Position numbers and translations under genes: made by a program | The notes under the pieces: generated by a model | Database searches by the model: none | What the model was told of the DNA's origin: nothing | The model's input: only the letters and a program-made list of their open reading frames with translations | Part shown: piece after piece, positions 5,969-42,011 of the stretch | Numbering within the stretch: the first letter of the stretch is position 1 | How the letters are laid out: every line of letters starts with the position of its first letter | Assembly (NCBI GenBank): GCA_013388635.1 | Contig: JACAEX010000080.1 | Span: 5,803-69,802 of the forward strand | Direction of reading: 5' to 3' | Source: Syntrophaceae bacterium | GTDB lineage: Bacteria; Desulfobacterota; BSN033; UBA1163 | Length of the DNA: 64,000 nt

Positions 5969-5993
5969 ATTTCTATCACAAGAGGTGAAAGGA

Positions 5994-7468: not shown

Positions 7469-8403
7469 CAGAAAAGCTAAATGTTTTTGCGGTTCGAACA
7501 TTGACGCAGAAGGAATATTTTGCACCCGGCCATCGGGCGTGTCAGGGATGTGCAGAGGCACTGGCCGTGCGATTGGTTGCCAAAGCGCTGGGAAGGAATG
7601 TGATCATCGCCTCTGCTACAGGGTGCATGGAGGTCGTCTCGTCTCCTATTCCCTTTACGGCATGGAGAGTCCCATGGTTCCATGTGGCCTTTGAGAACGC
7701 CGCGGCTGTGGCCTCAGGGATTGAATCGGGTTTGAAGGTTTTGATGAGAAAGGGAAGGCTTCCGCGTAAAAAGATCGTGACCATCGCCCTGGCCGGTGAC
7801 GGAGGCACGGCAGACATCGGTCTTCAGGCCCTTTCAGGGGCCCTGGAGAGGGGCCATGACTTCATCTACATCTGCACCGATAATGAGGCCTACATGAACA
7901 CGGGAATCCAGAGATCTTCATCAACGCCTTTCGGTGCGTCGACGACCACCTCTCCCGCTGGGAAGGTGAAGATGGGTCAGATCACCTGGAAGAAGAACAT
8001 GCCTGCGATTGCAGCCGCGCACAACATCCCCTACGTGGCCACGGCCTGCCCGAGCTATCCGATCGATCTTGTCGAGAAGGTGAAGAAGGCGGCCAGCATC
8101 GAGGGGCCAGCCTATCTCCATATCCTTTCTGTCTGTCCTACGGGCTGGAGATCTGCACCCGAGCTTTCGATCAAATTGGGTCGGTTAGCTGTCGAGACAG
8201 GGATTTTCCCGCTCTACGAAGTGGAGCATGGGAAATATCACCTGAGCATCGATTTCCCTCGATTGAGGCCCATTAAAGAATACATCAGACTTCAGGGAAG
8301 GTTTCGACACCTGACCGAGGAGATGATCGGACAGATTGAGGAGCGGGTCCGAAAGGAATACGCGGAACTGAAGGAGAAGGCAGCAAAAGGAGTTGCGAGA
8401 TGA
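7465..8403 (+). CDS. porB: pyruvate:ferredoxin oxidoreductase beta subunit (TPP-binding)
   Basis: GDGG TPP-binding motif ([12 protein letters not shown]) and the cysteine cluster CQGCAE...C are present. There is an ATGA overlap with porA. Confidence 0.9.
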
Positions 8404-8888
8404 CACAATCGGAAATCGAAGCCATCATCGAACGGTATGGAAGAAAGGAATCTTCCATCCTTTCTATTCTTCAGGACATACAGACCAGGGAGAAATACCT
8501 TCCGAGAGAAGCCCTCGAGTATGTGGGCGAGAAACTCCAGATCCCTTTAAATAAGATTTACAGGATTGCAACCTTCTACCGGGCCCTGAGCCTGATGCCT
8601 CGGGGAAGACATGAGGTCTGCGTCTGTATGGGGACGGCCTGTCATGTTCGCGGAGCACAGAGGGTTCTTGATCAACTCAAACTGGAATTGGGCATCGCGC
8701 CTGGAGAGACCACAAAGGATTTAAACTTCACCCTCGAAACGGTCAACTGCCTGGGCGTATGTGCTGCCGGACCGGTTGTGGCGATCGACGGTCAATACTT
8801 TGGAAAGATGAATCCGACCAAGGTGGAAGGGACTTTAAAGCAGTTTCGTTCTGACAAGAAGAAGGAGGCCGCGGATGGGAAGGCTTAG
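8400..8888 (+). CDS. NuoE-like [2Fe-2S] thioredoxin-fold subunit (NADH dehydrogenase 24 kDa / HydC/HoxE family)
   Basis: Cys pattern CVCMGTAC...C...C with the NuoE fold. It is translationally coupled to porB (ATGA overlap) and to the following nuoF-like gene. Confidence 0.85.
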
Positions 8889-10746
8889 TTCTCCTCAGGA
8901 GTTGGAAAAATACAGGGAAGGGATCCGCCGCAGAAGAGACCCCCATCAGGCCTTCATCACGGTTTGCGGGGGAACGGGGTGTCATGCCTCAGGATGTCAT
9001 GCCGTGGTGGATGCCTTCAAAAAGGTCATTCAGGAGAAGGCCAAGGGCAATGGGGTGGGCCTTCGCGTGACAGGGTGTCACGGCTTCTGTGAAAGAGGGC
9101 CATTGGTGGTCCTTCATCCCCAGAAGGTCCTTTACCAGCGAGTCAAACCAGAGGATGCGCCAAAGATCTTTGAAGAGACGGTCCTGAATGGAAAGATTGT
9201 GGAATCCTTGCTTTATGAACATCCGACCACAGGGGAGAAGATCGTTTCGGAAGAGGAGGTCCCCTTCTACAAAAAACAGATGCGGATCATCTTCGGGAAT
9301 AATGGAAGTATCGACCCCGCTCAGATCGAGGACTATCTGGCGGTCGGAGGATATCAAGCCTTATGTAAGGCCCTTTTTTCGATGAAGCCGGAAGAAGTCA
9401 TTCGAGAGGTGAAGAAGGCCAACCTGAGAGGAAGAGGGGGAGGAGGATTCCCGGCTGGTCTGAAGTGGGAACAGTGCCGGAATGCGCCGGGTGAGATCAA
9501 GTATGTGATCTGCAATGCAGATGAAGGAGACCCCGGGGCCTATATGGACCGGAGCCTTTTGGAGGGAAATCCTCATAGCGTACTCGAAGGCATGATCATC
9601 GGGGCCTATGCGATCGGAGCCCATGAAGGGTATGTATTTGTCCGGCACGAATACCCGCTGGCCGTTGTGAATATTGGCATTGCGATCCAACAGGCCCGGG
9701 AATTGGGGCTTCTTGGAAAAGAGATCCTCGGATCGGGATTTTCGTTCGATGTTCAGATCAGCAGGGGAGGCGGGGCCTTTGTAGCAGGAGAATCGACCGC
9801 TCTCATGGCCACGATTGAAGGGAATGTGGGAGAGCCGAGAGCCAAGCACATCCATACGGTCATCAGTGGTCTCTGGGATAGGCCGACCAATCTGAACAAC
9901 GTGGAGACCTGGGCCAATGTACCCCTGATCATCGATCGGGGTGCTGATTGGTACACCCAGATTGGTACCGAGGGGAGCAAAGGGACGAAGATCTTCTCCC
10001 TCGTCGGTAAGGTGAACAATACCGGTCTGGTCGAAGTCCCCATGGGAATTACCCTCAGGGAGATCGTTTATGATATCGGAGGTGGCATCCCGGGAGGAAA
10101 GAAATTAAAAGCCGTGCAAACCGGAGGGCCATCGGGTGGATGCATTCCTGAGTCTCTCATCGATTTGCCTGTGGACTTCGATCGACTTACCGAAGTGGGT
10201 TCCATGATGGGCTCAGGCGGAATGATCGTCATGGACGAGTCGACCTGCATGGTGGACGTGGCCAAGTATTTTATGAACTTCCTCAAGGACGAATCGTGCG
10301 GGAAGTGTACCTCCTGCCGCGAGGGCACGAGACGGATGCATGAGATCCTGATGGAGATTACGGAGGGGAGGGGAACCCTGGACCACCTCGACCTTCTCGA
10401 GGAATTGGGCTGGGTCACTGCTGAGGCTTCCCTCTGCGCCCTGGGAGGGACAGCGCCCAATCCAGTCCTTTCCACCCTTCGCTATTTCCGGGATGAGTAT
10501 AAAGAACATATTCTGAACAAACGATGTCCGGCCAAGGTCTGCCGCGCTCTTCTGAAATACCGGATTCTTTCCGATGTGTGCACGATGTGCGGGAGGTGTG
10601 CGAAGGCCTGCCCGGTTGAGGCGATCAGCGGTAAGGTCAAGACAAAGAAAGAGAAGGGAATCCCTTTCAAGATCGACGAGCAGAAATGTATTAAGTGCGG
10701 GATGTGTTTCGAGTCCTGTAAATTTGAAGCAATCGAAGTCCAATAA
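8875..10746 (+). CDS. NuoF-like NAD(P)H-binding flavoprotein subunit (HydB/HndC architecture)
   Basis: 623 aa. N-terminal thioredoxin-like 2Fe-2S domain (CGGTGCHASGCHAV). NuoF core with FMN/NADH motifs (GRGGGGFPAG) and a 4Fe-4S cluster (ESCGKCTSCREG). Two C-terminal CxxCxxCxxxCP ferredoxin motifs. Confidence 0.85.
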   Translation: MGRLSSPQELEKYREGIRRRRDPHQAFITVCGGTGCHASGCHAVVDAFKKVIQEKAKGNGVGLRVTGCHGFCERGPLVVLHPQKVLYQRVKPEDAPKIFEETVLNGKIVESLLYEHPTTGEKIVSEEEVPFYKKQMRIIFGNNGSIDPAQIEDYLAVGGYQALCKALFSMKPEEVIREVKKANLRGRGGGGFPAGLKWEQCRNAPGEIKYVICNADEGDPGAYMDRSLLEGNPHSVLEGMIIGAYAIGAHEGYVFVRHEYPLAVVNIGIAIQQARELGLLGKEILGSGFSFDVQISRGGGAFVAGESTALMATIEGNVGEPRAKHIHTVISGLWDRPTNLNNVETWANVPLIIDRGADWYTQIGTEGSKGTKIFSLVGKVNNTGLVEVPMGITLREIVYDIGGGIPGGKKLKAVQTGGPSGGCIPESLIDLPVDFDRLTEVGSMMGSGGMIVMDESTCMVDVAKYFMNFLKDESCGKCTSCREGTRRMHEILMEITEGRGTLDHLDLLEELGWVTAEASLCALGGTAPNPVLSTLRYFRDEYKEHILNKRCPAKVCRALLKYRILSDVCTMCGRCAKACPVEAISGKVKTKKEKGIPFKIDEQKCIKCGMCFESCKFEAIEVQ

Positions 10747-14798: not shown

Positions 14799-14893
14799 TG
14801 GCGGAAGTGCATGGGAATCGAACCCACCGCGGACATCTTCTGCCCGCCACTGGATTTGAAGTCCAGGAGGCCCACCAGGACCTAACCACTTCC
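14799..14893 (-). tRNA. selC: tRNA-Sec (selenocysteine tRNA, anticodon UCA)
   Basis: The minus-strand read is GGAAGTGGTTAGGTCCTGGTGGGCCTCCTGGACTTCAAATCCAGTGGCGGGCAGAAGATGTCCGCGGTGGGTTCGATTCCCATGCACTTCCGCCA (95 nt). Anticodon stem CTGGA/TCCAG with loop CTTCAAA gives anticodon TCA. Long variable arm (GCGGGCA-GAAGA-TGTCCGC). T-loop TTCGATT with a 5-bp stem. 7-8 bp acceptor stem and an encoded CCA. Confidence 0.8.
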
Positions 14894-17231: not shown

Positions 17232-18680
17232 CTATGCACGATGCGCTTTGCTCTCTGCGGTTTTTGCAAGGGCCTTTTCAATTCCGGCGGCTAAGAGAGG
17301 AATCTCTTCATCCGAAATCGTTCTCATGTCCAGGATCAGTCCGTCCTTGCTGATTCGGGAGATGATCGGAGGCTCGGCTTTCCTCAAACCTTCTTCGAGA
17401 CCGTTCACGGACAGATCAACGGGCTTGAGGCGAACGACGACCGTTGGAAGTTCCTGAAGGGGGAGAGCTCCTCCACCGACCTGAGAGATATCCTCCTTGA
17501 GGACCGGGGTTGTCTTCTGCTTAATCCTTTCTGACAGGCTTCTTAGGAGACGCCTTGCCCTCCTCTTCAGTACAGCCCGATCGATTTTCAACATTCGAAG
17601 GGTCGGGATTTCTTCCATCGCCATCTTTTCATCGAGGTAGAGGAGGAGTGTGGATTCGAGCGCAGCTAAGGTCAGCTTGTCGATGCGAAGGGCTCGGGTC
17701 AGGGGATTGATTTTGACGAGGTCTAAGATGGCCTTCTTCCCCAAGATGATTCCGGCCTGGGGACCGCCCAGAAGTTTATCGCCGCTAAAAGTGACCAGGT
17801 CCACACCGGTCTGGATCGCCTCCGGGACAGTGGGTTCTCTTTCCAATCCATATTGACTGAGGTCAAGAAAGCAACCGCTTCCCAAGTCGTGCATCACAGG
17901 GAGGTGATTCTCTTTTCCCAGTTGAACGAGATCTTGGAGAGGGGTATCGGCGGTGAAGCCCATCACCCTGAAGTTGCTGGTATGGACCTTCAGGAGCAAG
18001 GCCGTCTGGGGGCCGATCGCCCTCTGATAGTCGCCGATATAGGTTCGATTCGTCGTCCCGACCTCTCTGAGAAAAGCTCCACTCCGTTTCATCACGTCAG
18101 GGATCCGAAACGCCCCTCCGATCTCGACCAGCTCCCCTCTCGAGACGATCACCTCTTTTCCTTCTGCGATCGTATTGAGGGCCAGCAAGACCGCGCCGGC
18201 GTTGTTGTTCACCACCATGGCCGACTCCGCACCTGAGAGACGGCAGAGGATCCCTTCCACATGGGTATAGCGGCTTCCCCGATCGCCCCGATCGAGGTCG
18301 TATTCCAGATTGGAGTAACCTCTGGCGATCTCTATCATGTGCTGAAGCGCAGAAGGGGCCAGGGGTGATCTTCCGAGATTGGTGTGGATCACCACTCCGG
18401 TCGCATTGATGACGCGACAGAGCCGGGGCTGGATCTGAACGGTGACCTCCCTCTGGAAAAGGGGATAAAGATTCTCGAAGGAGAATATCCCATCGTCAAG
18501 ATCGGAGAGGTCTTCCGTTTTCAGGATCTCTGAACGGAGCCTTTCCAGTCCCTTTCGAACGGCCTCCACCACGACGGCTCGAGGATGGACCTTCAAAAGG
18601 TCAGCCATCTCTGGCCTTGAGAGGATTTCATCGACCTTCGGTATCTTACGAAGGACCTGTTGACGAAGGGAGGGAGACAT
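17232..18680 (-). CDS. selA: L-seryl-tRNA(Sec) selenium transferase
   Basis: 482 aa. SelA motifs are present (INATGVVIHTNLGRS; FSGDKLLGGPQAGII with the PLP lysine). The N-terminus SLRQQVLRKIPKVDEIL resembles E. coli SelA SLYSQLPAIDRLL. Its 5' end overlaps the 3' end of the upstream radical-SAM ORF by about 35 nt. Confidence 0.9.
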   Translation of the reverse strand: MSPSLRQQVLRKIPKVDEILSRPEMADLLKVHPRAVVVEAVRKGLERLRSEILKTEDLSDLDDGIFSFENLYPLFQREVTVQIQPRLCRVINATGVVIHTNLGRSPLAPSALQHMIEIARGYSNLEYDLDRGDRGSRYTHVEGILCRLSGAESAMVVNNNAGAVLLALNTIAEGKEVIVSRGELVEIGGAFRIPDVMKRSGAFLREVGTTNRTYIGDYQRAIGPQTALLLKVHTSNFRVMGFTADTPLQDLVQLGKENHLPVMHDLGSGCFLDLSQYGLEREPTVPEAIQTGVDLVTFSGDKLLGGPQAGIILGKKAILDLVKINPLTRALRIDKLTLAALESTLLLYLDEKMAMEEIPTLRMLKIDRAVLKRRARRLLRSLSERIKQKTTPVLKEDISQVGGGALPLQELPTVVVRLKPVDLSVNGLEEGLRKAEPPIISRISKDGLILDMRTISDEEIPLLAAGIEKALAKTAESKAHRA

Positions 18681-20412
18681 TCGGTTTCCTCCTCATCAGG
18701 AGCGTCTTCACAATCTTGATGAAGTTCATCCGGATGAATCGGGTGGGCCACTCCAGTTCCTTCTTCTCGCAGACCGTTGACATGCTGTAGGCGTGAAGGG
18801 AGAGATCCCCGGGCAAAATCGAATCCAGGGCCCTCTCCCTTTCCTTCGGGTCAGAAAGGGCCATGATCTCGTCGATCTGTTTCATCACCCGGACAGCAGC
18901 CTCGATCCGCCTCTCGACCGATTCAGCCGTCTTTCGGTCGATCAGGCCAAATTCGGCCTTCAGACGATTGAGCCTCTTCCCCGCTTCATAGGTGCTATAG
19001 ACGATTTCATCACGGCTCATCCATCGGGTTTCGTAGTTGAGGATGTATTTCCAGCTGGGGGCCATTAAGGCCTGACGGTGCTCTTCAACGGTCCTGCAGA
19101 AAAGCCGGTATCCATATCTCTCCGGTTCTTCGAAGGCAGCGCTTCCAGGGTCTAAGAAAGGGGCGAGGGGAGAGATGAAGGGAATGAGTTTCGGATAGGG
19201 CTGGAATCGCTTTAAGAGGTATTGGCAGTAATCAACCGTCTCCAGCACCGAGTGATAGGTCTGCCCTGGAAGACCGGTCATGAAGAAGAGATCGATCCGT
19301 TTGGAACCGAGGTCAATGGCATCGCCGATCATCCTCTCCAGAGATTTGTTGTCATAAGGCCTTCCGAAGGTCTTTCGAACCTCTTCGTCGTGCGATTCCG
19401 GAGAGATCTCGATATTGAAATTCGGAATGGCCTCGGCAATCCTTTCGAGTCGATCCCTTGAGGGAGGGACAAAGAATTCGAAGGCGATGTGATTGGTGAT
19501 CCGCCTCTTTTTCATCTCCTGAAGAAAGGTGAGGCCATAGGCCTCACCGGGCTGGAAGATATCGCCGATGATCATCACCGGCGCGAGGAGGTGGTCTGCG
19601 ATATGGAAGATATCCTGGGCCAGAAGCCTTGGGTCTCGGTAGGCGGGTCTCCTCCGGTTAGCCATGGACCGAAACGTCTGGGACGAGCCGCCGCACGTTT
19701 TGCAGTGATAGCTACATCCGCGGCAGGTGAAGACCGCCGTAACCGGATAGGTGTACCAGTCGATAAAAGGCTGGTAACCCACGGGATCGGCATACCTGAC
19801 CACCTTCTTCATGATGTGGCGGTAGTCGATCGCCATGTCGTCGAGGTTCTCCGGCACGTAGGAGAGGGGATTGACCCGAATCCCATTTCCTCCGTCGCGG
19901 TAGGTGAGATTGGGAATATTTTGGAAATCTCCCTTTCCCTTGATCGCCCGGAGGAGCTGGAGAAGAGGCTTCTCCGTGGAATCTCCTTTGACCACAAAAT
20001 CGACGAAAGGATATTGGCGGAGGATCTCCTCGTGATAGTAGGTGGCGGAGAGACCGCCTAAAATGACCGGTGTTTCAGGGTGAAATCTCTTGATGATCTC
20101 CGCCAGAGCCAGCGCGCCCTGGACATGGGCCATCCAGTGAAGATCGAGACCGAAGGCCACGGGCTTACTCTTTTGGATGAGCCGTTCCACATCGAACCTT
20201 CTATCCTTCAGCATCTTCAAAGCGATATTGATAATCCTCACCCGGAGGCCGTGGCGTTCCAGGTATTCTGAGAGGCTGGCAAATCCAATCGGGTACATCT
20301 CAAAGATAGGGGTTGACGGAACGACATCACTGATCGGGCCATGGATCCCGGGTCTTTTCCTGAAATCGTAAAGGGTAGGGGGGTGGAGAAGGATCAGGTC
20401 AATGGTGGCCAT
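18646..20412 (-). CDS. B12-binding-domain radical SAM protein (class B; BchE/HpnJ-like)
   Basis: 588 aa. N-terminal cobalamin-binding Rossmann-like domain (DLILLHPP...YPIGFASLSEYL...VILGG). Radical-SAM CxxxCxxC motif (CSYHCKTC). Confidence 0.8.
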   Translation of the reverse strand: MATIDLILLHPPTLYDFRKRPGIHGPISDVVPSTPIFEMYPIGFASLSEYLERHGLRVRIINIALKMLKDRRFDVERLIQKSKPVAFGLDLHWMAHVQGALALAEIIKRFHPETPVILGGLSATYYHEEILRQYPFVDFVVKGDSTEKPLLQLLRAIKGKGDFQNIPNLTYRDGGNGIRVNPLSYVPENLDDMAIDYRHIMKKVVRYADPVGYQPFIDWYTYPVTAVFTCRGCSYHCKTCGGSSQTFRSMANRRRPAYRDPRLLAQDIFHIADHLLAPVMIIGDIFQPGEAYGLTFLQEMKKRRITNHIAFEFFVPPSRDRLERIAEAIPNFNIEISPESHDEEVRKTFGRPYDNKSLERMIGDAIDLGSKRIDLFFMTGLPGQTYHSVLETVDYCQYLLKRFQPYPKLIPFISPLAPFLDPGSAAFEEPERYGYRLFCRTVEEHRQALMAPSWKYILNYETRWMSRDEIVYSTYEAGKRLNRLKAEFGLIDRKTAESVERRIEAAVRVMKQIDEIMALSDPKERERALDSILPGDLSLHAYSMSTVCEKKELEWPTRFIRMNFIKIVKTLLMRRKPNVSLPSSTGPS

Positions 20413-20417: not shown

Positions 20418-21563
20418 TTATCTCGCGGACTGGGCTTTCTTCGGTTCTGGAAATTTTGATAGATAGAGATCGACCATCTTTCGGATGCGAGGGTCATCTT
20501 TCGTACTTTCGCCGAGCAGGAAGATCGCATTGGTAAATTCGTTCTTTCCCTGGAGTTGTCTGAGGTTTCGCTCAACCTCCTCTTTTGCCTTTTGCCATTG
20601 GGCCTTTTCGGCCTCTGTTGCCCCTTTTTCCATCAATCGATAGTGGAGGCTCCTCAGGCCCTGTTCCATGGTCTGCTTGGCCGCGGTGTTGTAAAAGAAG
20701 GGTTCTCGATTATGAAAGGTAAGATCGATTCTTCCCGCATACATTCCCTTCGGGGCGGTCTGGAGGACGATCGTTCTGTTATAAGCGACACGGGGATAGG
20801 GAAGGTTGATCCCTGTATGACTGCCTATGATGAGGTGAATTCCAGAAAGGGTGTTTGCCAACTCCAGATCCTTGGGATAGCCCAGGTGGCTCAAGAGGAT
20901 GACGAGATCGGTTTTGGGTTGAAGTTCTTTGATCATGTTCTGGGCCGTTTCAACAGGAGATTTGAGGATCAGGCCTTTTTTTCTAAGATCTCCTTCGCCC
21001 AGGAAAAGATCAGGGGAGAGAAGGCCAAAGATACCTATTCGCAGACCGTCGATCTCTTTTAAGAGATAGGGCTGAAAAAGAGGTTTTCCTGATGACTCAT
21101 CAAAGAGGTTGGCAGAGAGGAGAGGGAAATTGGCCTTCTTCGCAATCTCTAAGAGGAAGTCCTTCCCGAGGGTGAGATCGTCATCGCCAACCCCCAGGGC
21201 GTCATAACCCATCAGATTGAAACTCTCGATGATCAGGTGAGCCCTTTCAGCGACCATCTTCAGCTCATCTTCCTGAACGGGCTTAGAAAACTTCTTAAAT
21301 AGAAGATCGCCTGCATCTAAGACCAGCACTCGTTTTTCAGCCTCCCTCGTTTCCCTCACCCATGTTGCCCTTCTGGCCAGACCGCCAAAACGATTCCTCG
21401 GGTCTCAGCCAGGACAGGGCTCGATCTCCCCATTGATATTATTGCTGTAAAGGATCGTAAGGTTCTTGACCGGGTTTTGGGCATGACAAGGGATGCTCGG
21501 ATTTGCCCAGAGAAACCCCAAGATCGAAAGGAGGATAAATAGCAGTTTTGCAGGCCCCATCAT
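20418..21563 (-). CDS. candidate selenoprotein: secreted 5'-nucleotidase-like metallophosphoesterase-domain protein with in-frame TGA (CPGU motif)
   Basis: The minus-strand frame runs from ATGATG at 21563 (GAGGGG RBS) through 52 codons (MMGPAKLLFILLSILGFLWANPSIPCHAQNPVKNLTILYSNNINGEIEPCPG). It then hits TGA at 21405-21407 and continues in frame (DPRNRFGGLARRATWV) into tracked ORF 20418..21359, whose annotated start is GTG. Homology to the UshA-type N-domain is continuous across the TGA. If the TGA is a true stop, the gene is split or a pseudogene. Confidence 0.5.
21405..21407 (-). other. in-frame TGA (putative Sec codon) in metallophosphoesterase-like gene
   Basis: Codon 53 of the 20418..21563 reading frame. 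Local context is C-P-G-TGA, a CxxU-like motif. Confidence 0.45.
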
Positions 21564-21879
21564 TTACCCCTCAATTCAATCAAATTCATATATACCCCAT
21601 CCCTCCCTTAGAGTCAAATAGGGACAGCGCCCATTAAACATAATTTTTTGCTTCGATAGATGAGACAAGATTGGCGTTGAAACCTTTTGGGGAATCCCGG
21701 CTTTCTCAGGATTTCAGCAATCCAGAACGTTGGCTGCTCAGTGCGGGCAAGGATCTTCTTCCGCATGAATTGTGAGGATCGCTCGATTTAGGGTGGAAAT
21801 AGGATTTTATCCACCTACACAGAGGACCACGAGGTTTGCGGTGTGGGGATTCGATACTCGTATATCCTTTTCTGATCAA

Positions 21880-22722
21880 TTATGAAGTCCAGGGGTTTGG
21901 GACGGGCCGATTATACCCTTTCTGAGAGGCTAAGATGTCGAGATGGAGAGTAGCCACATCCTCTAAGATTGGTTCACATTCTTCGATCTTTCTCAGGTCG
22001 ATGGTCTTGATATATTGATGGCATTTTTCGCAAAGGTCGATGCGATAGGCTTCCTCCCCCTCGGCATAGAAGTATTGCAGGGAGCCCCGTTCTTTGTTTC
22101 CGCAGAAAGGACATGACAGTCTATCGATTCGCCACTCAAATCCGCAATAGGAGCAGAGGAGGTAACGTTTTCCTCCCTCGCCTTTCAAGAGAGCAAAGGA
22201 GGGTAGGGAACCACAGATCGGGCAGTGGCCTTTGAGCCAGGTTTCAGCATCCACTTCTTGACCGAGCCTTTTCACCCCTTCCTCAAGAGAGGGCTTCAAG
22301 CTTTCATGAAGAAGGAAGAGAAAGACCTTCCGATCCATTTCGAATTGATCAGCCACCTTTTCTCCTTCTATCTCTCCGGTGAACACCTTCTTCAGATCGA
22401 ATCTTTTTTGGCTGATAACCTCCCGGATCTTTTCCACCTGCTCAGCCATATGAGGGGTTGCCTCTTTTGCAATGTTGCAGAGCGAGTGAAATAAAAGAGA
22501 GGAGGCCTCAAGGTCCACCGGGAAATCCTTTCTTTCGAGCATTGAAAAGCCTTCCCTGGCCAACAGCTCCTTCCACTCCTTTTTGAGATGAACGGGTTCG
22601 ACTTTCAAGGAATCTTTGATCTTCTCCTGCTCTTCCCTGACTTGCTGGTAGAAGTTCAGGATCTCTGTGTAGCCGGGTCGCTTCTTTTTGAGATGCTGAA
22701 TCCTTTTTCTTAGCTTTTCCAA
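21880..22722 (-). CDS. fdhE: formate dehydrogenase accessory protein FdhE
   Basis: 280 aa with four CxxC pairs (CPICG...CSYCG...CPFCG...CEKCH), the characteristic FdhE arrangement. Confidence 0.8.
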   Translation of the reverse strand: MEKLRKRIQHLKKKRPGYTEILNFYQQVREEQEKIKDSLKVEPVHLKKEWKELLAREGFSMLERKDFPVDLEASSLLFHSLCNIAKEATPHMAEQVEKIREVISQKRFDLKKVFTGEIEGEKVADQFEMDRKVFLFLLHESLKPSLEEGVKRLGQEVDAETWLKGHCPICGSLPSFALLKGEGGKRYLLCSYCGFEWRIDRLSCPFCGNKERGSLQYFYAEGEEAYRIDLCEKCHQYIKTIDLRKIEECEPILEDVATLHLDILASQKGYNRPVPNPWTS

Positions 22723-23121
22723 AGAAACTCTCCTAACCTCCCTCTATTCCGCTCTTGACTTAAGGGGGGATGAAGGGGGGTCATGAAAGAAACGGGCTTG
22801 TTTCGGAACTTCCATACCCAAAACAAGCCCTTCCGTTTCCCCGTCCCCCATCGGAGACTGTGTTATAACTTGCCAGAAACCGTTTCCGTTGCCACACAGA
22901 AGAGGCGGTCAGGTGACGAAGCCTTAAGGCGGAAACCTCTTATTCGATCAGCTTCTGAGTCCCAAGCCGAAGAAAGAAATCGCATTTCCCACAAGGCCGA
23001 TGACCCATAACTTTAAATGACCGCATCCTAAGGCTGAGGATGCCTGACTGCCTCTCCCACCTGGACCAGCTCCCTATCACGATTCCGACAAAGTCTCTCG
23101 ATAGGGAGGAAGAGTAAGGGA

Positions 23122-23856
23122 TTACCCGATCGTCATGCTTCTCAGGGGTTGAAAGATACGTCTAAGGGCCATCTTCCTTGTGATCCCGATCGTATTGTCC
23201 GCCACAGCTCTCTTATGATACTTCTTGGGATCGTCCACGAGGAGGTAAATCACCCTCACGTCATCCGGATTGGCCAGCATGGCTTCCTGATAAAGACCTT
23301 TGACTTCTTCGAGCCTCTTGTTTGCCCTCTCCAGGATCTCCCTCCGATCACCGAAACTCATCGCTCCGGTGGGACAGGTCTTGACGCAGGCAGGCAGCAT
23401 TCCCTCCTTGACCCTGTCGAAACACATTGTGCATTTCGCCATGGTTCCAGAAGCGGGATGGAACCTTGGGATGTCGTAGGGACAGGCCTCTCGGATCTCT
23501 TTAAACTCGTCGGCCTTTATCTTCACCTTCGGGTTGAAAACCACTGCCCCGGTCTTTTCGTCCTGGATGATGGCGCCCTTTGCCTTCCCGTCTGCCACCT
23601 CTTTGCAGGGAGGGGTGAGACAGTGGCGACATTGATCCGGGAAGAAATACCATTTCGGTTCCCCTCCGGGTATTGCCACCTCATTGAATCTTACCAACTT
23701 AAACGTGTAAACGGAAAGATCAGCTGGATTTTGATGATTTCCTCGCTGAAGGGTTTTCGTCCCAGGATTCTTATTCCACTGCTTGCAGGCGATCTGGCAG
23801 CCTCGGCAGGCAGTACATTTCGTCGTGTCGATAAAGAAAGATTTTCCTTCTGTCAT
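23122..23856 (-). CDS. fdhB: formate dehydrogenase iron-sulfur (beta) subunit, FdnH/HybA-like 4x[4Fe-4S]
   Basis: Multiple CxxCxxCxxxCP motifs (CTACRGCQIACK; CRHCLTPPCKEV; CPYD; CTMC...CVKTCP). A GAGGAGGTGAG RBS lies 6-8 nt upstream. It sits immediately downstream of fdhA. Confidence 0.85.
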   Translation of the reverse strand: MTEGKSFFIDTTKCTACRGCQIACKQWNKNPGTKTLQRGNHQNPADLSVYTFKLVRFNEVAIPGGEPKWYFFPDQCRHCLTPPCKEVADGKAKGAIIQDEKTGAVVFNPKVKIKADEFKEIREACPYDIPRFHPASGTMAKCTMCFDRVKEGMLPACVKTCPTGAMSFGDRREILERANKRLEEVKGLYQEAMLANPDDVRVIYLLVDDPKKYHKRAVADNTIGITRKMALRRIFQPLRSMTIG

Positions 23857-23872
23857 TTATCTCACCTCCTCC

Positions 23873-26800
23873 TCAGCCCTTTTTCGCGGCCGGTTTTTGC
23901 GTGATCTTGCGAACGTTGGCCATAAAGGCCTTGGATTCCGGAATCATGGTATTGGGATCACCGATCGTAGGAGTGAGGAGATTCGCACTCTCTCCTCCGT
24001 CCTTTGGGTGGAGCCAGCCAAAATGCCACGGAATTCCTATCTGGTGAACGGTCTGCCCGGCGACGTTGAACGGCTTCAGCCGAGAGGTCACAATAGCCAC
24101 GGCCACGAGCCTTCCCCTTGGAGTTTCCACAGACACCCGGTCACCGTTTTTGATCCCTCGCAGCTTGGCCAGTTCGATGCTCATCTCACAAAAGACCTGA
24201 GGTTCAGCCTCAATCAGCCAGGGCAGCCATCGGGTCAATACGCCGGTCTGCCAGTGTTCGGTAACCCGGTAGGTGCTGCAAACAAAGGGGTATCTCGGAT
24301 CGCAGGTCGCAAATGTGTCCGGACCTCCCTCGAAGATCTTGACCACAGGGTTGATCCTCTGGCTGGACATCAGATTCTTCTCGATCGGACATTCGAGAGG
24401 CTCGTAGTGTTCAGGGAAAGGACCGTCCTTCAAGCCAGGTCCGAAGATGGATGATACTCCATCGGGTTTCATAATGAACGGATAGGCTCCGGTGGTCCCC
24501 ATGGGAGGCACGGCATTGTCAGGGACGTCGCCTATCCATTTCTTTTCCGTCGGGTCCCATCTGAGGAGGGGCCGTTTTGGGTCTCGAGGATTTCCGTCAA
24601 GATCCACTGAGGCTCTGTTGTAGATGATTCTGCGATTCAGTGGCCAGCACCATGACCACTCGGGATAGAGGCCCAATCCGGTCGGGTCGGTCTTCTTTCT
24701 ACGGGCAGCCATATTCCCGGCCTCGGTATAGCTGGCAGAATAGAGCCAGTTCCCGCAAGAGGTCGTCCCATCATCTTTTAAAGCGACAAAATTGGGAACT
24801 AATTTGCCGGTCGTGAGATCGTAGCCGTTGATCTCTTTTGCAACCTTATGGATATCAAAATGGCCACCGGATTCGTAGTCCCACTTCAGGTTTAAAATCG
24901 GCTCCGGGAAGGCCCCCTTTTCCTTTTCATAGAGGGCCCGAACCTTCTTAAAGAGTTCATATATGATATCGCCATCGGGCTTCGCCTCTCCAGGAGGATT
25001 GGCACATTTATAGCGCCATTGCATCCAGCGACCGCTGTTCGAGATGCTTCCTTCTTTTTCGAGGAAGGCGGCACAGGGGAGCTGGAAGACCTCGGTCTTG
25101 ATCTTCTTCGGATCCATTCCCGGGCCCTTCCAGAACGATCCTGTCTCGCTGTCGAAGACGTTGACATTGACCATCCAGTCAAGCTTTGCCAAGGCCTGGC
25201 GGACCTTTCCCGCATGGGCGCTTGAACAAGCAGGATTCATTCCCCAGGCAAAGAAACCGGTGAAGGTCCCTTTATACATCTCATCGAAGAGATTTAACCA
25301 TGAGGCATCCTGAGTCGGATCGAGTTTGGGCATCCACGAGTATCCAAAATCGTTCTCTTTCGTCGCTTTCTCTCCAAACATCGATTTTAAGAAGCTCACT
25401 AGGTATTTGGGCCGGTGTCTCCACCAGTTCACACTTCTTGGGTCCTTCGTCGTCGGAGTCGTCTTATTGTAGTCGGCAATGGTTGGCCACTGGGCCCTTG
25501 GAGTGGGTAAATACCCGGGGAGGATATGGAAAAGCAATCCCTGATCGGTTGACCCCTGGACATTGGATTCACCCCGGAGGGCGTTGACACCTCCTCCTGC
25601 AATCCCCATATTTCCGAGGAGATCCTGGATGATCGCCATGGCTCGAATGTTCTGGACGCCGACCGTATGCTGAGTCCATCCCATCGCGTAGAGGACGGTC
25701 CCTGCTTTATCAGGGGCACCTGTTGAGCCATATGCCTTGTAGACGTTTTCCAGGTCGGCCATCGGGGTTCCAGTAATTTCAGAGACCTTTTGGAGGGTAT
25801 AGCGGGAATAATGTTTCTTCAGGATCTGGAAGACGCATCGTGGGTCTTGAAGGGTCATATCCCTCTTCGGAATCCCATTTTCGTCCTTCTCCAAAGCCCA
25901 GGTCGATTGATCATAAGCCCTCTTGACCGGATCATAGCCTGAAAAGAGGCCGTCATCAAAACTATACTTGGGGTTGACGATGAATGAGGCATTGGTATAG
26001 TTCTTGACATAAAATTCATCGTAGAGGTTGTGGTCGAGAATATACTTGATCATGCCTCCGAGAAAGGCGATATCGGTTCCCGAACGAAGCCGCACAAAGA
26101 GATCGGCCTTTGTCGAGGTCCGGGTGAATCTGGGATCCACATGGATAAAGATCGCCCCTCTATCCTTCGCGGCCTGAATCCATTTAAAAGAGACCGGGTG
26201 ATTCTCGGCCACGTTTCCACCCATGTTTAGGATCACATCCGCGTTTCTGAAGTCGATATAATGATTGGTCATTGCACCGCGTCCGTACGACTCTGCCAGA
26301 GCCGCTACCGTGGCGCTGTGTCAGATACGGGCCTGATGTTCGATATAGACGATCCCCAATGCCCTGAGGAACTTCTGATAGAGCCAGCATTCCTCATTGT
26401 CCAGGGCCGCGCTTCCAACGGATGCGATTCCATTGGTTCGATTGACCACCTGGCCCTGTGAATTTTTCTCCATAAAGCTTGCGTCACGGCTCTTCTTGAT
26501 GTTGGCCGCGATCTTATTCAGGGCCCATTCCCAGCTCACCTCTTTCCAGGTGGTGCTGTATGGGGCACGATAACGGACCTTCTGAAGCCGATGTGGATTG
26601 ACAGCGATTTGATAACTCGAGGCCCCTTTGGCGCAGAGAGCTCCTTCGTTGATGGGATGGTCAGGATCTCCCTCGGCGTTAATCACCTTTCCTTTGGCAT
26701 CGGTGTGAACGATGATTCCACAGCCGACCGAGCAGAAACAACAGATCGACGTCGTCTCCTTCGCACCCTTGATTCTAAGTTGTTGGGCATAGACATCCGC

Positions 26801-26890
26801 AGCGGACAGATCGAACCCCAGGCCGCCCATCACCGTCCCTGCAGCAGTGGCGCCCGAGATCTTTAAAAAGGTTCTTCGGGTAATCTTCAT
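23873..26890 (-). CDS. fdhA: formate dehydrogenase catalytic subunit, selenocysteine-containing, Tat-exported (FdnG/FdhA)
   Basis: Two tracked ORFs (26321..26890 and 23873..26272) are joined in frame through the TGA at 26321-26323. This gives ...GIVYIEHQARI-U-HSATVAALAESYGRGAMTNHYIDFRNADVIL..., the conserved Sec active-site context of FdnG/FdhF. The N-terminus has a twin-arginine signal (TRRTFLKISGATAAG) and a CxxCxxxC 4Fe-4S motif. Confidence 0.9.
26284..26309 (-). promoter_or_regulatory. putative SECIS hairpin downstream of fdhA UGA
   Basis: On the minus strand, after an 11-nt spacer from the UGA, GCGGCUC-UGGCA-GAGUCGU can form a roughly 7-bp GC-rich stem-loop. The spacing fits bacterial SECIS elements. 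It was folded by eye only. Confidence 0.3.
26321..26323 (-). other. UGA selenocysteine codon of fdhA
   Basis: It is the stop codon of tracked ORF 26321..26890. The frame continues into ORF 23873..26272 with the consensus Sec-FDH sequence. Confidence 0.85.
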
Positions 26891-26913
26891 AGCTATTTAT
26901 TCACCTTCCTTTC

Positions 26914-26929
26914 TTGAAATTTTGAAATC
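26914..26929 (-). repeat. TTGAAAT tandem motif in fdhA upstream region
   Basis: The plus strand reads ttgaaattttgaaatc, about 25-40 nt upstream of the fdhA start. The same ATTTCAA/TTGAAAT unit recurs in the lysA-upstream palindrome. Confidence 0.4.
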
Positions 26930-27059
26930 CGGAGTCAAATTCACCTCCTTTCCACACGTATAAAAATTCAGGGGAATCGACTGAGGATGATGATTTTCTT
27001 ACGAGATTCCCCTTCTTTGATCGTCATCTTTTTTAGGATTGGGCTAAGAATGTGGGAAG

Positions 27060-27557
27060 TCAAAGAGCATTGTGAAAGATACCACAAACGTTTTTTTTGT
27101 CAAGAAAAAAGTTTGCAAATTTCTTCATCCCGGAAAAAGCACTCACAATCGGCTTTCTCGTATCCGGATCGTCCGATAGCTCAAAGTTGAGTTGCTCTGA
27201 AAGGAGGCTAAGGGTTCTTTTTTTATCTGTCGGATGGATCCAGAGATCGTGGTCTGCTGTAAGAACGGGTGCACCATACAAGATGATGGCTCGACGACCA
27301 ACGATGAGGTATCGGATCTTATGGCGATTAAAGCTTCTTATGAGGTCAACGAATTTAACTTCTTTTCTGGTTTCATCCGTTTTTAAACCAAACTTATTGA
27401 TGAAGGTCTGAATTTCTTCCCATTCCCTGTCTATGTATGGTAGCCGTTCGACAGGGGAAAACTTAGAAAACCAGAGAAGGTCCTCGGCAAGCTGACGTTG
27501 TCTCCATAAGGGGATATCCTTAAGGGATTTTGGATATACGATCTTTTTTAAAGCCAT
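27060..27557 (-). CDS. hypothetical protein in AT-rich segment (possible nucleotidyltransferase-fold protein)
   Basis: 165-aa ORF in a region that looks lower in GC than its neighbours. The motif KIRYLIVGRRAIILYGAPVLTADHDLWIHP resembles a minimal nucleotidyltransferase fold (G[GS]x9-13DxD). The function is unassigned. Confidence 0.3.
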   Translation of the reverse strand: MALKKIVYPKSLKDIPLWRQRQLAEDLLWFSKFSPVERLPYIDREWEEIQTFINKFGLKTDETRKEVKFVDLIRSFNRHKIRYLIVGRRAIILYGAPVLTADHDLWIHPTDKKRTLSLLSEQLNFELSDDPDTRKPIVSAFSGMKKFANFFLDKKNVCGIFHNAL

Positions 27558-27635
27558 TCCCTCTCCTTTAAAAATAATCTAACATTTTCAGAAGAAATTT
27601 TTAATATAAAAAATGCAGGAACCGTCTAACTCTTT

Positions 27636-28586
27636 TTAAAACAAAGCCTGGACAAATTCGTTGGCATTAAACTCTTTGAGATCGTCGATCCCCTCGCCCA
27701 CGCCAATGTAGCGAATGGGAATTTTGAGCTCTTCGGTGATCCCCACAATGATCCCGCCCTTGGCCGTTCCATCCAGTTTGGTAAGGGCAATGCCTGTTAC
27801 GCCGATCACTTCGTTAAAAAGTTTTGCCTGAGAGATGGCATTCTGACCGGTTGTGGCATCGAGGACGAGAAGGATTTCATGGGGCGCGCCCGGACATTCC
27901 CTTCCGATAATCCGCTTTACCTTCTTCAACTCTTCCATGAGGTTGACCTTGGTGTGAAGCCTTCCTGCTGTATCGATGAAGACGAGATCGATCTCTCTGG
28001 CTTTGGCGGCGTGGATGGAGTCGAAGGCAACGGCTGATGGGTCTGAGCCCCTGGATTGCCTGATCAGATCGGCTCCGACCCGATTGGCCCAGACCTCCAG
28101 CTGCTCGACTGCTGCAGCCCGAAAGGTGTCGGCCGCACCGATCAGGACCTTCCTCCCCTGGGATGAGTATTGGTGGGCGATCTTGGCAATGGTCGTTGTC
28201 TTGCCTGTGCCGTTGACGCCAACCACCATGAAGACAAAGGGTCTGGTCTGTGAGAAGTCGATGAAGAGGGGTTTCTCTCCTGATCTGAGGATTCGAAGCA
28301 TCTCCTGTTTAATGAATTCTTTGACCTTATCCGGTTCCTTTAGCTCCCCCTTTTTCAGTCCCTGCCGGACACCTTCGAGCAGTTGATCCGACGTCTTCAC
28401 ACCCAGATCGGCAGCGAAGAGGAGACCTTCAAGCTCATCTAAGAGCCCCTCGTCGATCGTCTTCTTCCCTAAAAAGAGGCGGTCCATCTGCTCCACAAAA
28501 CCCTGGTGGGTTTTTGAGAGGCCCTTTCTTAATTTTTCAAAAAAAGCCATGGCTTCCTCTCCTGCGATTGATTCCGATCCTAACAC
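27636..28586 (-). CDS. ftsY: signal recognition particle receptor FtsY
   Basis: NG domain with GVNGTGKTTTIAKIA, DTAGR and TKLDGTAKGG motifs. Confidence 0.9.
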   Translation of the reverse strand: MLGSESIAGEEAMAFFEKLRKGLSKTHQGFVEQMDRLFLGKKTIDEGLLDELEGLLFAADLGVKTSDQLLEGVRQGLKKGELKEPDKVKEFIKQEMLRILRSGEKPLFIDFSQTRPFVFMVVGVNGTGKTTTIAKIAHQYSSQGRKVLIGAADTFRAAAVEQLEVWANRVGADLIRQSRGSDPSAVAFDSIHAAKAREIDLVFIDTAGRLHTKVNLMEELKKVKRIIGRECPGAPHEILLVLDATTGQNAISQAKLFNEVIGVTGIALTKLDGTAKGGIIVGITEELKIPIRYIGVGEGIDDLKEFNANEFVQALF

Positions 28587-33624: not shown

Positions 33625-34632
33625 TCACTTGAAGTGTTCAAAACCCAGGCGATCAGGTGAATATTCTCTTCCATCTCTTTGGACGATGCGGAGTCCTTTT
33701 TTTCGATGGACAATTTCTCCGATACGGGTGATCGGTATCCTTAAGGAGTGGGATAGGGTTAAGATCTCCTTCCTCTTTTCTGGAGGTGCAGTGAAAAGGA
33801 GTTCGTAATCCTCACCTCCGGCAAGGGCGATCTCATAAAGATCTTTCGAATAGGAGCGGATCCACTTCCGGTAAGGCCTCGAGAGGGGAAGCTGTTCCTC
33901 CCGGATCCGAGCCCCTACCTTGCTCTCTTTCAGGAGATGGGTTGTATCGATCAGGAGGCCATCACTGACATCGATCATCGCCGTTGCCAGACGATGGCCT
34001 GCAATCGCCTGGCCCAATTCGATTCTCGGTCGGGGAGAGAGGTGCTTCTCAATCAATCGGCTGGCGTCTCCCTTCGCTCCTCCTTTCTCAAGCATCCTTA
34101 GCCCCAGAGCAGCGTCGCCCAGTGTTCCAGAGACAAAGAGATCATCGCCGACTCTTGCCCCTTTTCTGAAGAGAAGGCCTCCTTTCGTTCCTTCTCCGAG
34201 GAGGCAGATGTTGATGATGATCCTCGGAGAGAGCGAGGTATCCCCTCCCACAAGATCGACTCCGAAGCGCCTCGAGCCGTCTTTTAACCCGCGGTAGAAT
34301 GAGGTGACAAAGGAAAGGCTGAGGTTCTTTGGAAGACCAAGGGAGATCAGAAAGTATTTCGGCACGCCGCCCATCGCGGCAATGTCGCTGAGATTGACGG
34401 CTATGGCCTTCCTTCCCAATCGGTAAGGATCGCTCCAGGAGCGCTTGAAGTGGATGTCTTCGATGAGGATGTCAGTGGTGGCGAGCAGGACTTTGCGACG
34501 CATCTCGATCACAGCCACGTCATCTCCGATACCTTGGAGCAGGGCCGGATCAGATGAGCCCGTCCACCTTCTGATTCGATCGATGATGCCGAATTCACCT
34601 ATTTCCCGTAGGATTTTGTCAGTCACTCTCAA
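33625..34632 (-). CDS. thiL: thiamine-monophosphate kinase
   Basis: The AIR-synthase-related fold has the ThiL signature (EFGIIDRI...GDDVAVI...LLATTDILIEDIHF...GGDTS). The start is TTG. Confidence 0.8.
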   Translation of the reverse strand: MRVTDKILREIGEFGIIDRIRRWTGSSDPALLQGIGDDVAVIEMRRKVLLATTDILIEDIHFKRSWSDPYRLGRKAIAVNLSDIAAMGGVPKYFLISLGLPKNLSLSFVTSFYRGLKDGSRRFGVDLVGGDTSLSPRIIINICLLGEGTKGGLLFRKGARVGDDLFVSGTLGDAALGLRMLEKGGAKGDASRLIEKHLSPRPRIELGQAIAGHRLATAMIDVSDGLLIDTTHLLKESKVGARIREEQLPLSRPYRKWIRSYSKDLYEIALAGGEDYELLFTAPPEKRKEILTLSHSLRIPITRIGEIVHRKKGLRIVQRDGREYSPDRLGFEHFK

Positions 34633-40280: not shown

Positions 40281-42011
40281 ATGAAGTGGATTATTCGAGT
40301 CAATACGAGAACCGGGAAGATTACGAAGCAGGAGGCCTCAGCCGAGGAGAGGCGATGGGGAGGCCGACTGCTGGTCTCAAAATTCCTTCTGAGAGAGGTC
40401 CCTCCCACATGCGATCCCCTTGGACGTCACAACAAGCTGATCATCGCCCCAGGGCTCTTAGGAGATACCCTGGTGACTACGGCCGGCAAGTTTTCAGTTG
40501 GAGGCAAGAGCCCGCTGACGCGTGGCGTTAAGGAGAGCGATGTCGGAGGAGAGGCCGGGAAGAAGATGGCCAGGCTCGGGATCAAGGCCCTGGTGCTGGA
40601 GGATATTCCTGAAAGAGCCGTGACGAAGATCCTCACGATCACCGCGAATCAAATCGCGCTCTCCGATTCTCCTGAGTTGGGAGGGAAGCCTGTCTCGGAG
40701 ACGATTCAACTCCTCCGGAGGCGCTTCGGTGGCCAGGTCGGAATGATCTGCATCGGCCCCGCGGGAGAGATGAAGATGGCAAGCGCAGGTGTAGCGGTGA
40801 CCGATGTCCAGGATGTACAGATCCGCTACGCGGCCAGAGGAGGGCTGGGCGCGGTGATGGGCTCCAAAGGGATTAAGGCGATCGTCGTGGATGATGCAGA
40901 GGCTGTGCCGGTTCAGGTTTCTGATGAGGCCCTTCTTCGAGAGGCAAGCAAAGCCCTGGCTCAAGCCATCTTAGCCGATCCCAAGACAGAAAACAGACAT
41001 CGGTATGGAACCCCTGCAATCCTCATGGTGGCAAATGAAATCGGCCTTCTTCCAACTCGAAATTTCAGCGCGGGTCAGTTTGAAAAAGCAGAGGAGATCG
41101 CTGGAGAACGGATCGCCGAAGTGATCGGGGCGCGTGGGGGGGAGGGGTGTTCAGGGGCACCCTGTTTGAGAGGCTGCGTGATTTCATGCTCCAATGTCTT
41201 TCCAGACCCATCGGGGAAGAAGACGGTTGCCTCGATCCAATATGAGAACATCGCCCTTCTTGGGCCAAACTGTGGGATTGGCGACCTTGACAGCATCGCG
41301 GAGCTGAACCGTCTTTGCAATGAGGTGGGTGTGGATACGATCGAGACCGGAGCTGCGATAGCGGTCGCCATGGAGGCCGGGGTGATTTCATTCGGTGACG
41401 CCCAAGGGGCCAAAGACCTGGTTCGGCAGATCGGCCAGGGCACCTACCTTGGACGGATCCTTGGAAATGGGGTGGTGATCACGGGCCGCGTATTGGGCGC
41501 AAGGCGTATCCCGGCTGTTAAGGGTCAGGCGATTCCAGGCTATGATCCTCGTGCATTGAAGGGCAACGGCGTCACCTACATCACTTCTCCAATGGGAGCG
41601 GACCACACCGCCGGAAATGCCTTCGAGACCGCTCAGTCCATCAATCCAATCGGTAAAGAAAATCAGGTTGAGATTTCGAGGAGGCTTCAGATCAGAGCAG
41701 CTATCCTCGACACCATGGGCCTATGTCTTTTCACTCGGCCTCCCTTTGTAAAGAGACCAGAACTCTTTGCTCATTTCTTGAGGGGACGCTACGGATGGAA
41801 CGTGGGTTACGAAGACGTCCAGCGAATTGGGATCGATGCGCTGGAGACAGAAAGAGAGTTTAACCGGCGTGCCGGGGTTTCAGAAGAGTTTTATGATATT
41901 CCGGAATTCATGAGGGAAGAACCGCTGCCTCCGAGAAATTCTGTTTTCGACCTCTCTCTGGAGGAGGTGCAGCGAATCTGGGAGGTCAAGATCCCGAACG
42001 ATATGTTTTAG
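40281..42011 (+). CDS. aldehyde:ferredoxin oxidoreductase (tungsten/molybdopterin AOR family)
   Basis: 576 aa. AOR N-domain (MKWIIRVNTRTGKITKQE...) and the C-terminal domains with CxxC 4Fe-4S ligands (RGGEGCSGAPC...C). Confidence 0.9.
   Translation: MKWIIRVNTRTGKITKQEASAEERRWGGRLLVSKFLLREVPPTCDPLGRHNKLIIAPGLLGDTLVTTAGKFSVGGKSPLTRGVKESDVGGEAGKKMARLGIKALVLEDIPERAVTKILTITANQIALSDSPELGGKPVSETIQLLRRRFGGQVGMICIGPAGEMKMASAGVAVTDVQDVQIRYAARGGLGAVMGSKGIKAIVVDDAEAVPVQVSDEALLREASKALAQAILADPKTENRHRYGTPAILMVANEIGLLPTRNFSAGQFEKAEEIAGERIAEVIGARGGEGCSGAPCLRGCVISCSNVFPDPSGKKTVASIQYENIALLGPNCGIGDLDSIAELNRLCNEVGVDTIETGAAIAVAMEAGVISFGDAQGAKDLVRQIGQGTYLGRILGNGVVITGRVLGARRIPAVKGQAIPGYDPRALKGNGVTYITSPMGADHTAGNAFETAQSINPIGKENQVEISRRLQIRAAILDTMGLCLFTRPPFVKRPELFAHFLRGRYGWNVGYEDVQRIGIDALETEREFNRRAGVSEEFYDIPEFMREEPLPPRNSVFDLSLEEVQRIWEVKIPNDMF

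Follow-up and report, generated by a model that had tools for sequence, protein, structure and literature searches.

The window analyzed here, a stretch of 64,000 nucleotides (64 kb) of contig JACAEX010000080.1 from the metagenome-assembled genome (MAG) of a Syntrophaceae bacterium, carries on its minus strand the genes of a formate dehydrogenase (FDH). The catalytic-subunit gene of this enzyme, fdhA, is interrupted in frame by a TGA codon, an arrangement that poses a question: is the codon a stop, or is it read as selenocysteine (Sec)? As delimited here, fdhA spans 23873..26890 (minus strand) and encodes a protein of 1005 residues, including a predicted Sec190; the protein belongs to the FDH catalytic subunits that carry molybdenum or tungsten (Mo/W) on a bis-pyranopterin guanine dinucleotide (bis-PGD) cofactor. 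Two open reading frames (ORFs) make up the gene, 26321..26890 (189 residues) and 23873..26272 (799 residues). Both lie in the same frame of the minus strand and are separated only by the TGA at 26321-26323, and translation from 26890 to 23873 yields 1005 codons with this one internal stop and no other. The peptide around the TGA is YIEHQARI-U-HSATVAALAESYGRGAMTNH. An earlier reading of this DNA (hereafter the sequence-only reading) had taken the two ORFs to be one FdhA read through the TGA; alignment to solved FdhA structures bears this out, placing the TGA on the Sec position.

For protein searches, the two parts of FdhA were joined with a Cys substituted at the internal stop. The joined protein matched TIGR01553, a model for the alpha subunit of formate dehydrogenase, over residues 3-995 with 1493 bits (cut-off 814); this model, the best in NCBIfam for FdhA, carries the name “formate dehydrogenase-N subunit alpha”. 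The top structural match was the tungsten-containing FDH (W-FDH) of Desulfovibrio gigas (1H0H_A; 1400 bits, query residues 38-995). The FdhA chains of Desulfovibrio vulgaris Hildenborough (6SDV and others) scored approximately 1390 bits over residues 1-1002, and FdnG of Escherichia coli (1KQF_A) aligned over residues 1-995 (E = 2.6e-299). The fdhA TGA aligns exactly with the “X” by which selenocysteine is marked in 1H0H_A and the chains from D. vulgaris. Residues of known function are conserved on both sides of it. The [4Fe-4S] ligands are C50/C53/C57/C86; U190/H191/R439 correspond to U192/H193/R441 of D. vulgaris FdhAB (DvFdhAB); and C834/C863 correspond to its C845/C872, which form an allosteric disulfide (residue roles from PMC11323313).

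The amino terminus of FdhA has the features of a signal peptide for twin-arginine translocation (Tat), as had been claimed. This element comprises approximately residues 1-35 (26786..26890, minus strand) and was identified as a motif in the translation: the twin-arginine motif RRTFLK at residues 5-10 is followed by a hydrophobic stretch and VYA. Cleavage likely occurs after VYA35; the crystallized D. gigas chain begins at about query residue 34 of FdhA. In an exact-sequence look-up, the two FdhA fragments were not found in the collection, whereas two other proteins of the window, FdhB and SelA, were.

The gene that follows, fdhB (23122..23856, minus strand), codes for a soluble iron-sulfur subunit of 244 residues; the assignment comes from the match to D. 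vulgaris FdhB, the Cys count and the hydropathy. Its product is an exact match to NCBI entry NWF93816.1, from a Syntrophaceae bacterium MAG, which is annotated as formate dehydrogenase. FdhB contains 12 Cys residues, enough for three [4Fe-4S] clusters. It matches D. vulgaris FdhB (6SDR_B) over the full length (residues 4-237; E = 8.8e-84) and D. gigas FdhB with E = 1.2e-80. The match to E. coli FdnH (1KQF_B) has E = 8.2e-38 and covers only residues 33-239 of that protein’s 294, and the score on the FDH-beta model TIGR01582 was 140 bits, against a cut-off of 334.7. The sequence-only reading had called for an “FdnH-like” fdhB after fdhA. The gene is indeed there, but its product is better described as resembling DvFdhB. 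No signal peptide was found in FdhB, and no membrane anchor: the maximum 19-residue hydropathy is 0.61, from which we conclude that the protein has no membrane helix.

Next on the same strand, again as had been described, is fdhE (21880..22722, minus strand), which encodes a probable FDH maturation or accessory protein of 280 residues with four CxxC pairs. It was recognized by its Pfam FdhE domains and its conserved position. FdhE_C (47.9) and FdhE_central (42.5) both exceeded the cut-off of 27, and FdhE_N scored 21.9 (cut-off 28.7).

We compared this region with 80 related genome loci (64-91% identity), all from uncultured MAGs assigned to Thermodesulfobacteriota, Syntrophaceae-like or Nitrospirota lineages. 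Within a few kilobases after fdhA, fdhB is found in 78 of the 80 loci and fdhE in 62, in the order seen here. Two of the loci end before the UGA region, so that 78 could be scored at codon 190. This codon is TGA in 74 of them; in the remaining four (L045, L054, L071 and L074), it is TGT or TGC, i.e. a Cys codon. The putative Sec codon (26321..26323, minus strand; residue 190) is thus conserved in relatives, besides aligning with the Sec of the Desulfovibrio chains. A sweep of the window for other pairs of ORFs joined by a TGA left only two credible cases, fdhA itself and a ushA-like gene, which is treated below.

A hairpin lies 3′ of the UGA, and we assign it as a putative selenocysteine insertion sequence (SECIS) element (26274..26316, minus strand) on the basis of its fold, its pairing in relatives, its frozen synonymous codons and its agreement with the model for bacterial SECIS elements (bSECIS). 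Nucleotides of the hairpin are numbered from the U of the UGA (nt 1). In the minimum-energy fold, the upper stem is formed by 8 bp between nt 19-26 and nt 30-37 (26305..26287) and is closed by the apical loop GGC at nt 27-29 (26297..26295); below it, nt 8-12 and nt 46-50 form a second, lower stem (26316..26274). A hairpin with SECIS-appropriate spacing had been predicted to start about 11 nt after the UGA. The hairpin itself holds up, but the start does not: the distance from the UGA to the conserved helix is 15 nt. The interval that had been put forward for folding, 26284-26309, encloses the upper helix.

Comparison of the hairpin across 63 distinct TGA-bearing sequences and the four Cys loci revealed a marked constraint on synonymous sites. 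In the upper helix, none of the 63 distinct Sec sequences changes a synonymous position of the codons GCU, CUG and GAG, and the codon UCG is kept in 60 of them. The flanking Thr, Val, Gly, Arg and Ala residues, by contrast, are each spelled with three to five synonymous codons, and the Ser at codon 2 with five. The three sequences that carry UCU in place of UCG also carry CAG in place of GCG, a compensatory change that converts the C20-G36 pair to A-U. When the upper helix was imposed on the alignment, 95% of the cells were paired; sliding the 3′ partner by one to three columns reduced this value to 29–55%. In the four Cys loci, the peptide AALAES is spelled with varied codons, and the hairpin is not formed. 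These natural variants are a clean internal control for the hairpin: judging from the alignment, it is retained only where the UGA must be read as Sec, and selection on its synonymous sites is confined to the TGA loci.

The lower stem behaved differently. In a fixed register, it showed 88% pairing and no double changes, because relatives with UCC or CCC codons re-pair in a shifted register; we therefore make no claim of covariation for this stem. A scan of the window against Rfam at gathering thresholds matched no SECIS family and returned the tRNA-Sec described below alone. This null result says little, as only families present in the library can be found.

The passages of PMC13188914 that set out the bSECIS model specify a loop of 3–9 nt on an upper stem of 4–16 bp, a G within the first two loop positions, a distance of 16–37 nt from the UGA to the apical loop, and a free energy no higher than -7.5 kcal/mol. 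The present hairpin has a loop of 3 nt (GGC) on a stem of 8 bp, and both values lie within these limits. None of the 63 distinct sequences departs from G at loop positions 27 and 28, the spacing from UGA to loop is 23 nt, and the calculated energy is -9.1 kcal/mol for the upper stem-loop (nt 19-37) and -19.8 kcal/mol when the lower stem is included (nt 8-50). Agreement on all four points supports the assignment of the hairpin as a bacterial SECIS, at which SelB binding and Sec insertion are predicted. The same four points constitute its likeness to the SECIS of E. coli fdhF and to the bSECIS consensus of Zhang and Gladyshev, as this is conveyed in those passages of PMC13188914. The hairpin differs from the fdhF element in having a GGC triloop at nt 27-29, and no bulged U like U17 of fdhF is evident. 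In E. coli fdhF, the SECIS has a GGUC-type loop at about nt 22-25 in addition to the bulged U17.

Part of the machinery for Sec decoding is encoded nearby. ARAGORN found one tRNA in the window, a tRNA-Sec with the anticodon UCA (selC; 14799..14893, minus strand). It scored 81.3 bits on Rfam family RF01852 (gathering score 47). Its fold (z = -3.18) shows a D stem of 6 bp and a variable arm of 7 bp, and the anticodon loop reads CUUCAAA. The gene for L-seryl-tRNA(Sec) selenium transferase, selA (17232..18680, minus strand), matches TIGR00474 at 622.6 bits (cut-off 267.9) over profile positions 1-453 of 455. Its product is identical to NCBI entry NWF93811.1, which is annotated with the same function; the neighboring radical S-adenosylmethionine (rSAM) gene is annotated as well. 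Both selC and selA share the strand of fdhA and lie 5–12 kb downstream of it. The sequence-only reading had rested its case for Sec decoding on these two genes, and both are genuine: the tRNA scan confirmed the Sec identity and the UCA anticodon, and SelA scored above the cut-off of its family. Indeed, every element which that reading described was found at the position given for it, and the two outcomes that it had named beforehand as fatal did not materialize, as the two ORFs proved to be related and the tRNA kept its Sec identity. One further gene was considered as a candidate for selD. This AIRS-family gene (33625..34632, minus strand) is thiL, scoring 331 bits on TIGR01379; its selD score was 78.8, against a cut-off of 125.

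How does the predicted enzyme compare with known FDHs? With the tungsten- and Sec-containing FdhAB of D. vulgaris Hildenborough (6SDR, 6SDV), it has in common the Tat signal, the Sec/His/Arg triad and both Cys residues of the allosteric disulfide. The beta subunits are of the same size class (244 residues here vs. 236 in D. vulgaris), and there is no membrane subunit in either system. DvFdhAB is reported to have four [4Fe-4S] clusters (PMC9774666), and the Cys count in the present proteins likewise fits four in all. The two differ in lineage, as the genes studied here come from an uncultured Syntrophaceae-like Thermodesulfobacteriota MAG, and the 64-kb window showed no cytochrome c partner. 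The peptide around Sec is identical to that of the D. gigas W-FDH (1H0H). Unlike the 214-residue beta chain of that enzyme, FdhB is extended at the C-terminus by about 25 residues, a trait it shares with the D. vulgaris protein. FDH-N of E. coli (FdnGHI; 1KQF) also has a Sec-containing, Tat-exported alpha subunit, which is a full-length homologue of FdhA and falls under the same NCBIfam alpha model. Its beta subunit, FdnH, holds four clusters and has a membrane helix in its C-terminal tail. FdhB, in contrast, lacks the FdnH tail and has 12 Cys residues, and no counterpart of the cytochrome b FdnI is encoded in the window.

From these comparisons, we conclude that the region very probably encodes a heterodimeric, periplasmic, Sec-containing and Mo- or W-dependent FDH of the Desulfovibrio FdhAB type, together with FdhE. 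The data also support the view that the UGA at codon 190 of fdhA is read as Sec, as the sequence-only reading had proposed. By the same predicted decoding, at least two selenoproteins are encoded in these 64 kb, which makes the organism a user of Sec.

By analogy with bacterial Sec decoding as it operates on E. coli fdhF, SelA would convert Ser-tRNA(Sec) to Sec-tRNA(Sec). A complex of SelB, GTP and Sec-tRNA(Sec) would then bind the GG-containing apical loop of the hairpin as the ribosome nears the UGA and would deliver Sec in competition with release factor 2. If the precedents of DvFdhAB and the D. gigas FDH apply, one [4Fe-4S] cluster would be bound by FdhA, together with the bis-PGD metal cofactor, and three more by FdhB. 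Because FdhB has no signal peptide of its own, the folded, cofactor-loaded heterodimer would presumably be exported by Tat on the signal peptide of FdhA. In the periplasm, formate and CO2 may be interconverted at the Sec/His191/Arg439 site, whether the enzyme would serve to oxidize formate or to reduce CO2 for syntrophic formate transfer, with the four clusters relaying electrons between this site and a soluble carrier. For FdhAB of Desulfovibrio, this periplasmic carrier is a c-type cytochrome.

Each part of this account has a competitor. The TGA could be a true stop, in which case fdhA would be a pseudogene or would give rise to two polypeptides, a 189-residue fragment with the Tat signal and the iron-sulfur site and a 799-residue fragment. 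After all, genes of the window end in TGA more often than in any other stop codon (20 of the 48 with family support), and mechanical ORF calling splits fdhA at its TGA; moreover, family scans of essentially all substantial ORFs did not find selB or selD in the 64-kb window. Yet a genuine stop would hardly be retained in 74 of 78 relatives, which span 64–90% identity, and replaced by Cys in the other four. FdhA is otherwise intact and is conserved on both sides of the TGA, a SECIS under selection lies 3′ of the codon, and tRNA-Sec and selA are encoded on the same contig. The ushA-like gene presents the same pattern a second time within the window: its TGA is kept in all 55 metagenome relatives (52–71% identity) and in all four close genome relatives. 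We consider a true stop highly improbable. The codon might instead be decoded as a residue other than Sec, e.g. by near-cognate read-through with Cys or Trp or under a reassigned code, and it is true that the identity of an inserted residue cannot be shown by sequence alone. That UGA terminates 20 of 48 well-supported genes nevertheless argues that the genetic code is standard, that it has not been reassigned, and that the recoding is therefore site-specific. Furthermore, the downstream hairpin with bSECIS features is lost exactly where the codon specifies Cys, and a dedicated tRNA with the anticodon UCA and Sec-type architecture is at hand. Decoding of the UGA as anything but Sec thus appears exceedingly improbable.

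The competing view of the enzyme itself is that it is a membrane-bound FDH of the FDH-N (FdnGHI) type, which would reduce quinone via a cytochrome b subunit whose gene lies in another part of the genome. The alpha subunit could be accommodated by such a view, as the best NCBIfam model for FdhA bears the FDH-N name and was matched above its cut-off, and E. coli FdnG aligns over residues 1-995. The beta subunit could not be so easily accommodated: FdhB reached less than half of the cut-off of the FDH-beta model (140 vs. 334.7 bits), it is much closer to soluble DvFdhB (8.8e-84) than to FdnH (8.2e-38), and the tail of FdnH beyond residue 239 has no counterpart in it. Its Cys residues number 12, not 16, and a hydropathy peaking at 0.61 falls short of what a membrane helix would require. 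Nor does a gene for cytochrome b or an NrfD-like protein adjoin fdhAB: the same family scans found no cytochrome b, multiheme cytochrome c or NrfD-like protein in the 64 kb, and nowhere in this sequence does a stop-to-stop segment carry more than one CxxCH motif. These results agree with the earlier statements that no membrane cytochrome b subunit is encoded nearby and that the enzyme resembles a soluble FdhAB of the Desulfovibrio type, FdhB being a full-length match to DvFdhB without a hydrophobic tail. As there is neither a gene for cytochrome b or c or an NrfD-like protein in the window nor an anchor on FdhB, the soluble FdhAB type fits the data better than FdnGHI, and we regard an FDH-N arrangement as very unlikely.

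Several points weigh against the reading of the region as a Sec-containing FdhAB with its own SECIS. The reading is based on the sequence of a MAG. The window is part of the genome only, and a membrane partner could be encoded elsewhere; no electron acceptor for the enzyme was identified in the window. Both selB and selD are required for Sec insertion, and their absence from the 64 kb means that the machinery is only partly shown. FdhE fell below the cut-offs of both NCBIfam models, NF002925 (89.6 vs. 426) and TIGR01562 (76.2 vs. 187.65). When the 64 nt after the UGA were folded as a single sequence, the result was unremarkable (z = -1.49), and 15 of 200 shuffled sequences folded at least as well. 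It was for this reason that comparative analysis was used, and support for the hairpin comes from the comparison with relatives rather than from the single-sequence fold. Even there, six of the eight upper-stem pairs never vary, and a compensatory change occurs in one pair only. With so little variation in the helix, the evidence from covariation is thin, and the case for the hairpin rests mainly on the contrast at synonymous sites.

The FDH system is already well known, indeed a textbook one, and offers no novelty in itself: structures of the FdhAB type are available, and it has been studied in detail. FdhA is described as the most widespread bacterial selenoprotein, and the Thermodesulfobacteriota as being among the lineages richest in selenoproteins (PMC13188914). 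The value of the present analysis for the FDH lies in annotation, in that the two ORFs should be merged as one Sec-containing gene. Retention of the redox-switch cysteines of the D. vulgaris enzyme is not surprising, and it could interest those who seek CO2-reducing FDHs.

The choice between tungsten and molybdenum is touched upon by an ORF of 576 residues at 40281-42011 on the plus strand. It matches an aldehyde:ferredoxin oxidoreductase model over its first ~227 residues only, with 85 bits against a cut-off of 868. Aldehyde:ferredoxin oxidoreductases are a family of tungsten enzymes. A genuine relationship would hint at tungsten use and would bear on the metal of the FDH, but it would not settle the matter.

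Directly downstream of fdhE is a second candidate selenoprotein gene, the ushA-like gene mentioned above. It consists of the ORFs 21405..21563 and 20418..21359 (minus strand), joined in frame by a TGA at 21405-21407. The product would be a UshA-like metallophosphoesterase of 381 residues; its N-terminus resembles a signal peptide, and it contains the motif NGEIEPCPG-U-DPRNRFGGLARR (CxxU). UshA-like selenoproteins are a listed family (NF041198, NF049981). The present protein scored just below both NCBIfam cut-offs (257 vs. 275 and 79 vs. 140). The C-terminal third of the profile has no counterpart in it, and the C-terminal nucleotidase domain is missing.

The ushA-like gene is followed by a gene for a B12-binding rSAM protein (18646..20412, minus strand; family match to TIGR04190) and then by selA. 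This order recurs in nearly every related locus with room for it (L081-L135), the exception being L113. The stop of the rSAM gene overlaps the start of selA by approximately 25–35 nt, and the rSAM protein is more conserved (78–94% identical) than the UshA-like protein (52–71%). The FDH operon is linked more loosely, as it lies upstream of the three genes in about 11 of the 19 loci with enough upstream sequence. Do the UshA-like selenoprotein, the TIGR04190 rSAM protein and SelA form a functional module, as opposed to a chance neighborhood? We consider this unlikely. All of the loci come from one abundant clade, and the shared gene order may consequently reflect plain inheritance; in a homologue search with the rSAM protein for distant relatives, all of the matches listed were at least 81% identical, and linkage outside the clade was not reached. 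Were the module real, it would be a clade-specific selenium-handling unit, e.g. one that mobilizes or modifies a selenium or nucleotide compound. It would sit beside the main selenoenzyme, with tRNA-Sec nearby, in a very abundant uncultured Syntrophaceae-like lineage.

On the coding strand, then, fdhB is followed by fdhE, the ushA-like gene and the rSAM gene, and upstream of fdhA are an ORF of 165 residues, ftsY and dnaK. Two long spacers interrupt the downstream series, one of 399 nt between fdhB and fdhE (22723-23121) and one of 316 nt between fdhE and the ushA-like gene (21564-21879). Neither contains a credible coding-strand ORF. The possibility of a third subunit in the spacer between fdhB and fdhE was considered and rejected: it has no coding-strand ORF of more than 46 codons and was treated as intergenic. 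In the closest relatives, the same spacer measures 99 to 348 nt. Scans of 21300-27700 for promoters and terminators returned six promoter-like sites (4.7 expected) and nine terminator-like sites (8.0 expected). Both are at background level, and we therefore draw no conclusion about operon structure from them. The 165-residue ORF (27060-27557, minus strand), which lies between ftsY and fdhA, matches no Pfam or NCBIfam family. It was considered as a partner subunit and set aside, having no family match, heme motif or membrane helix; it is partly conserved (62–73% over 90–102 residues) beside ftsY in two of the related loci, L008 and L029.

Farther away, the plus strand carries a pyruvate:ferredoxin oxidoreductase set (5420-10746) with matches to porC, porA and porB. 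The por genes are followed by a gene for a fused protein of 623 residues, in which NuoE-like 2Fe-2S, NuoF-like and C-terminal ferredoxin regions can be distinguished; another ORF, 8400..8888, lies between porB and this gene. The fused protein is not linked to the periplasmic FDH, and we take it to be a cytoplasmic NAD(H)-linked electron-transfer module of a kind typical of syntrophic anaerobes.

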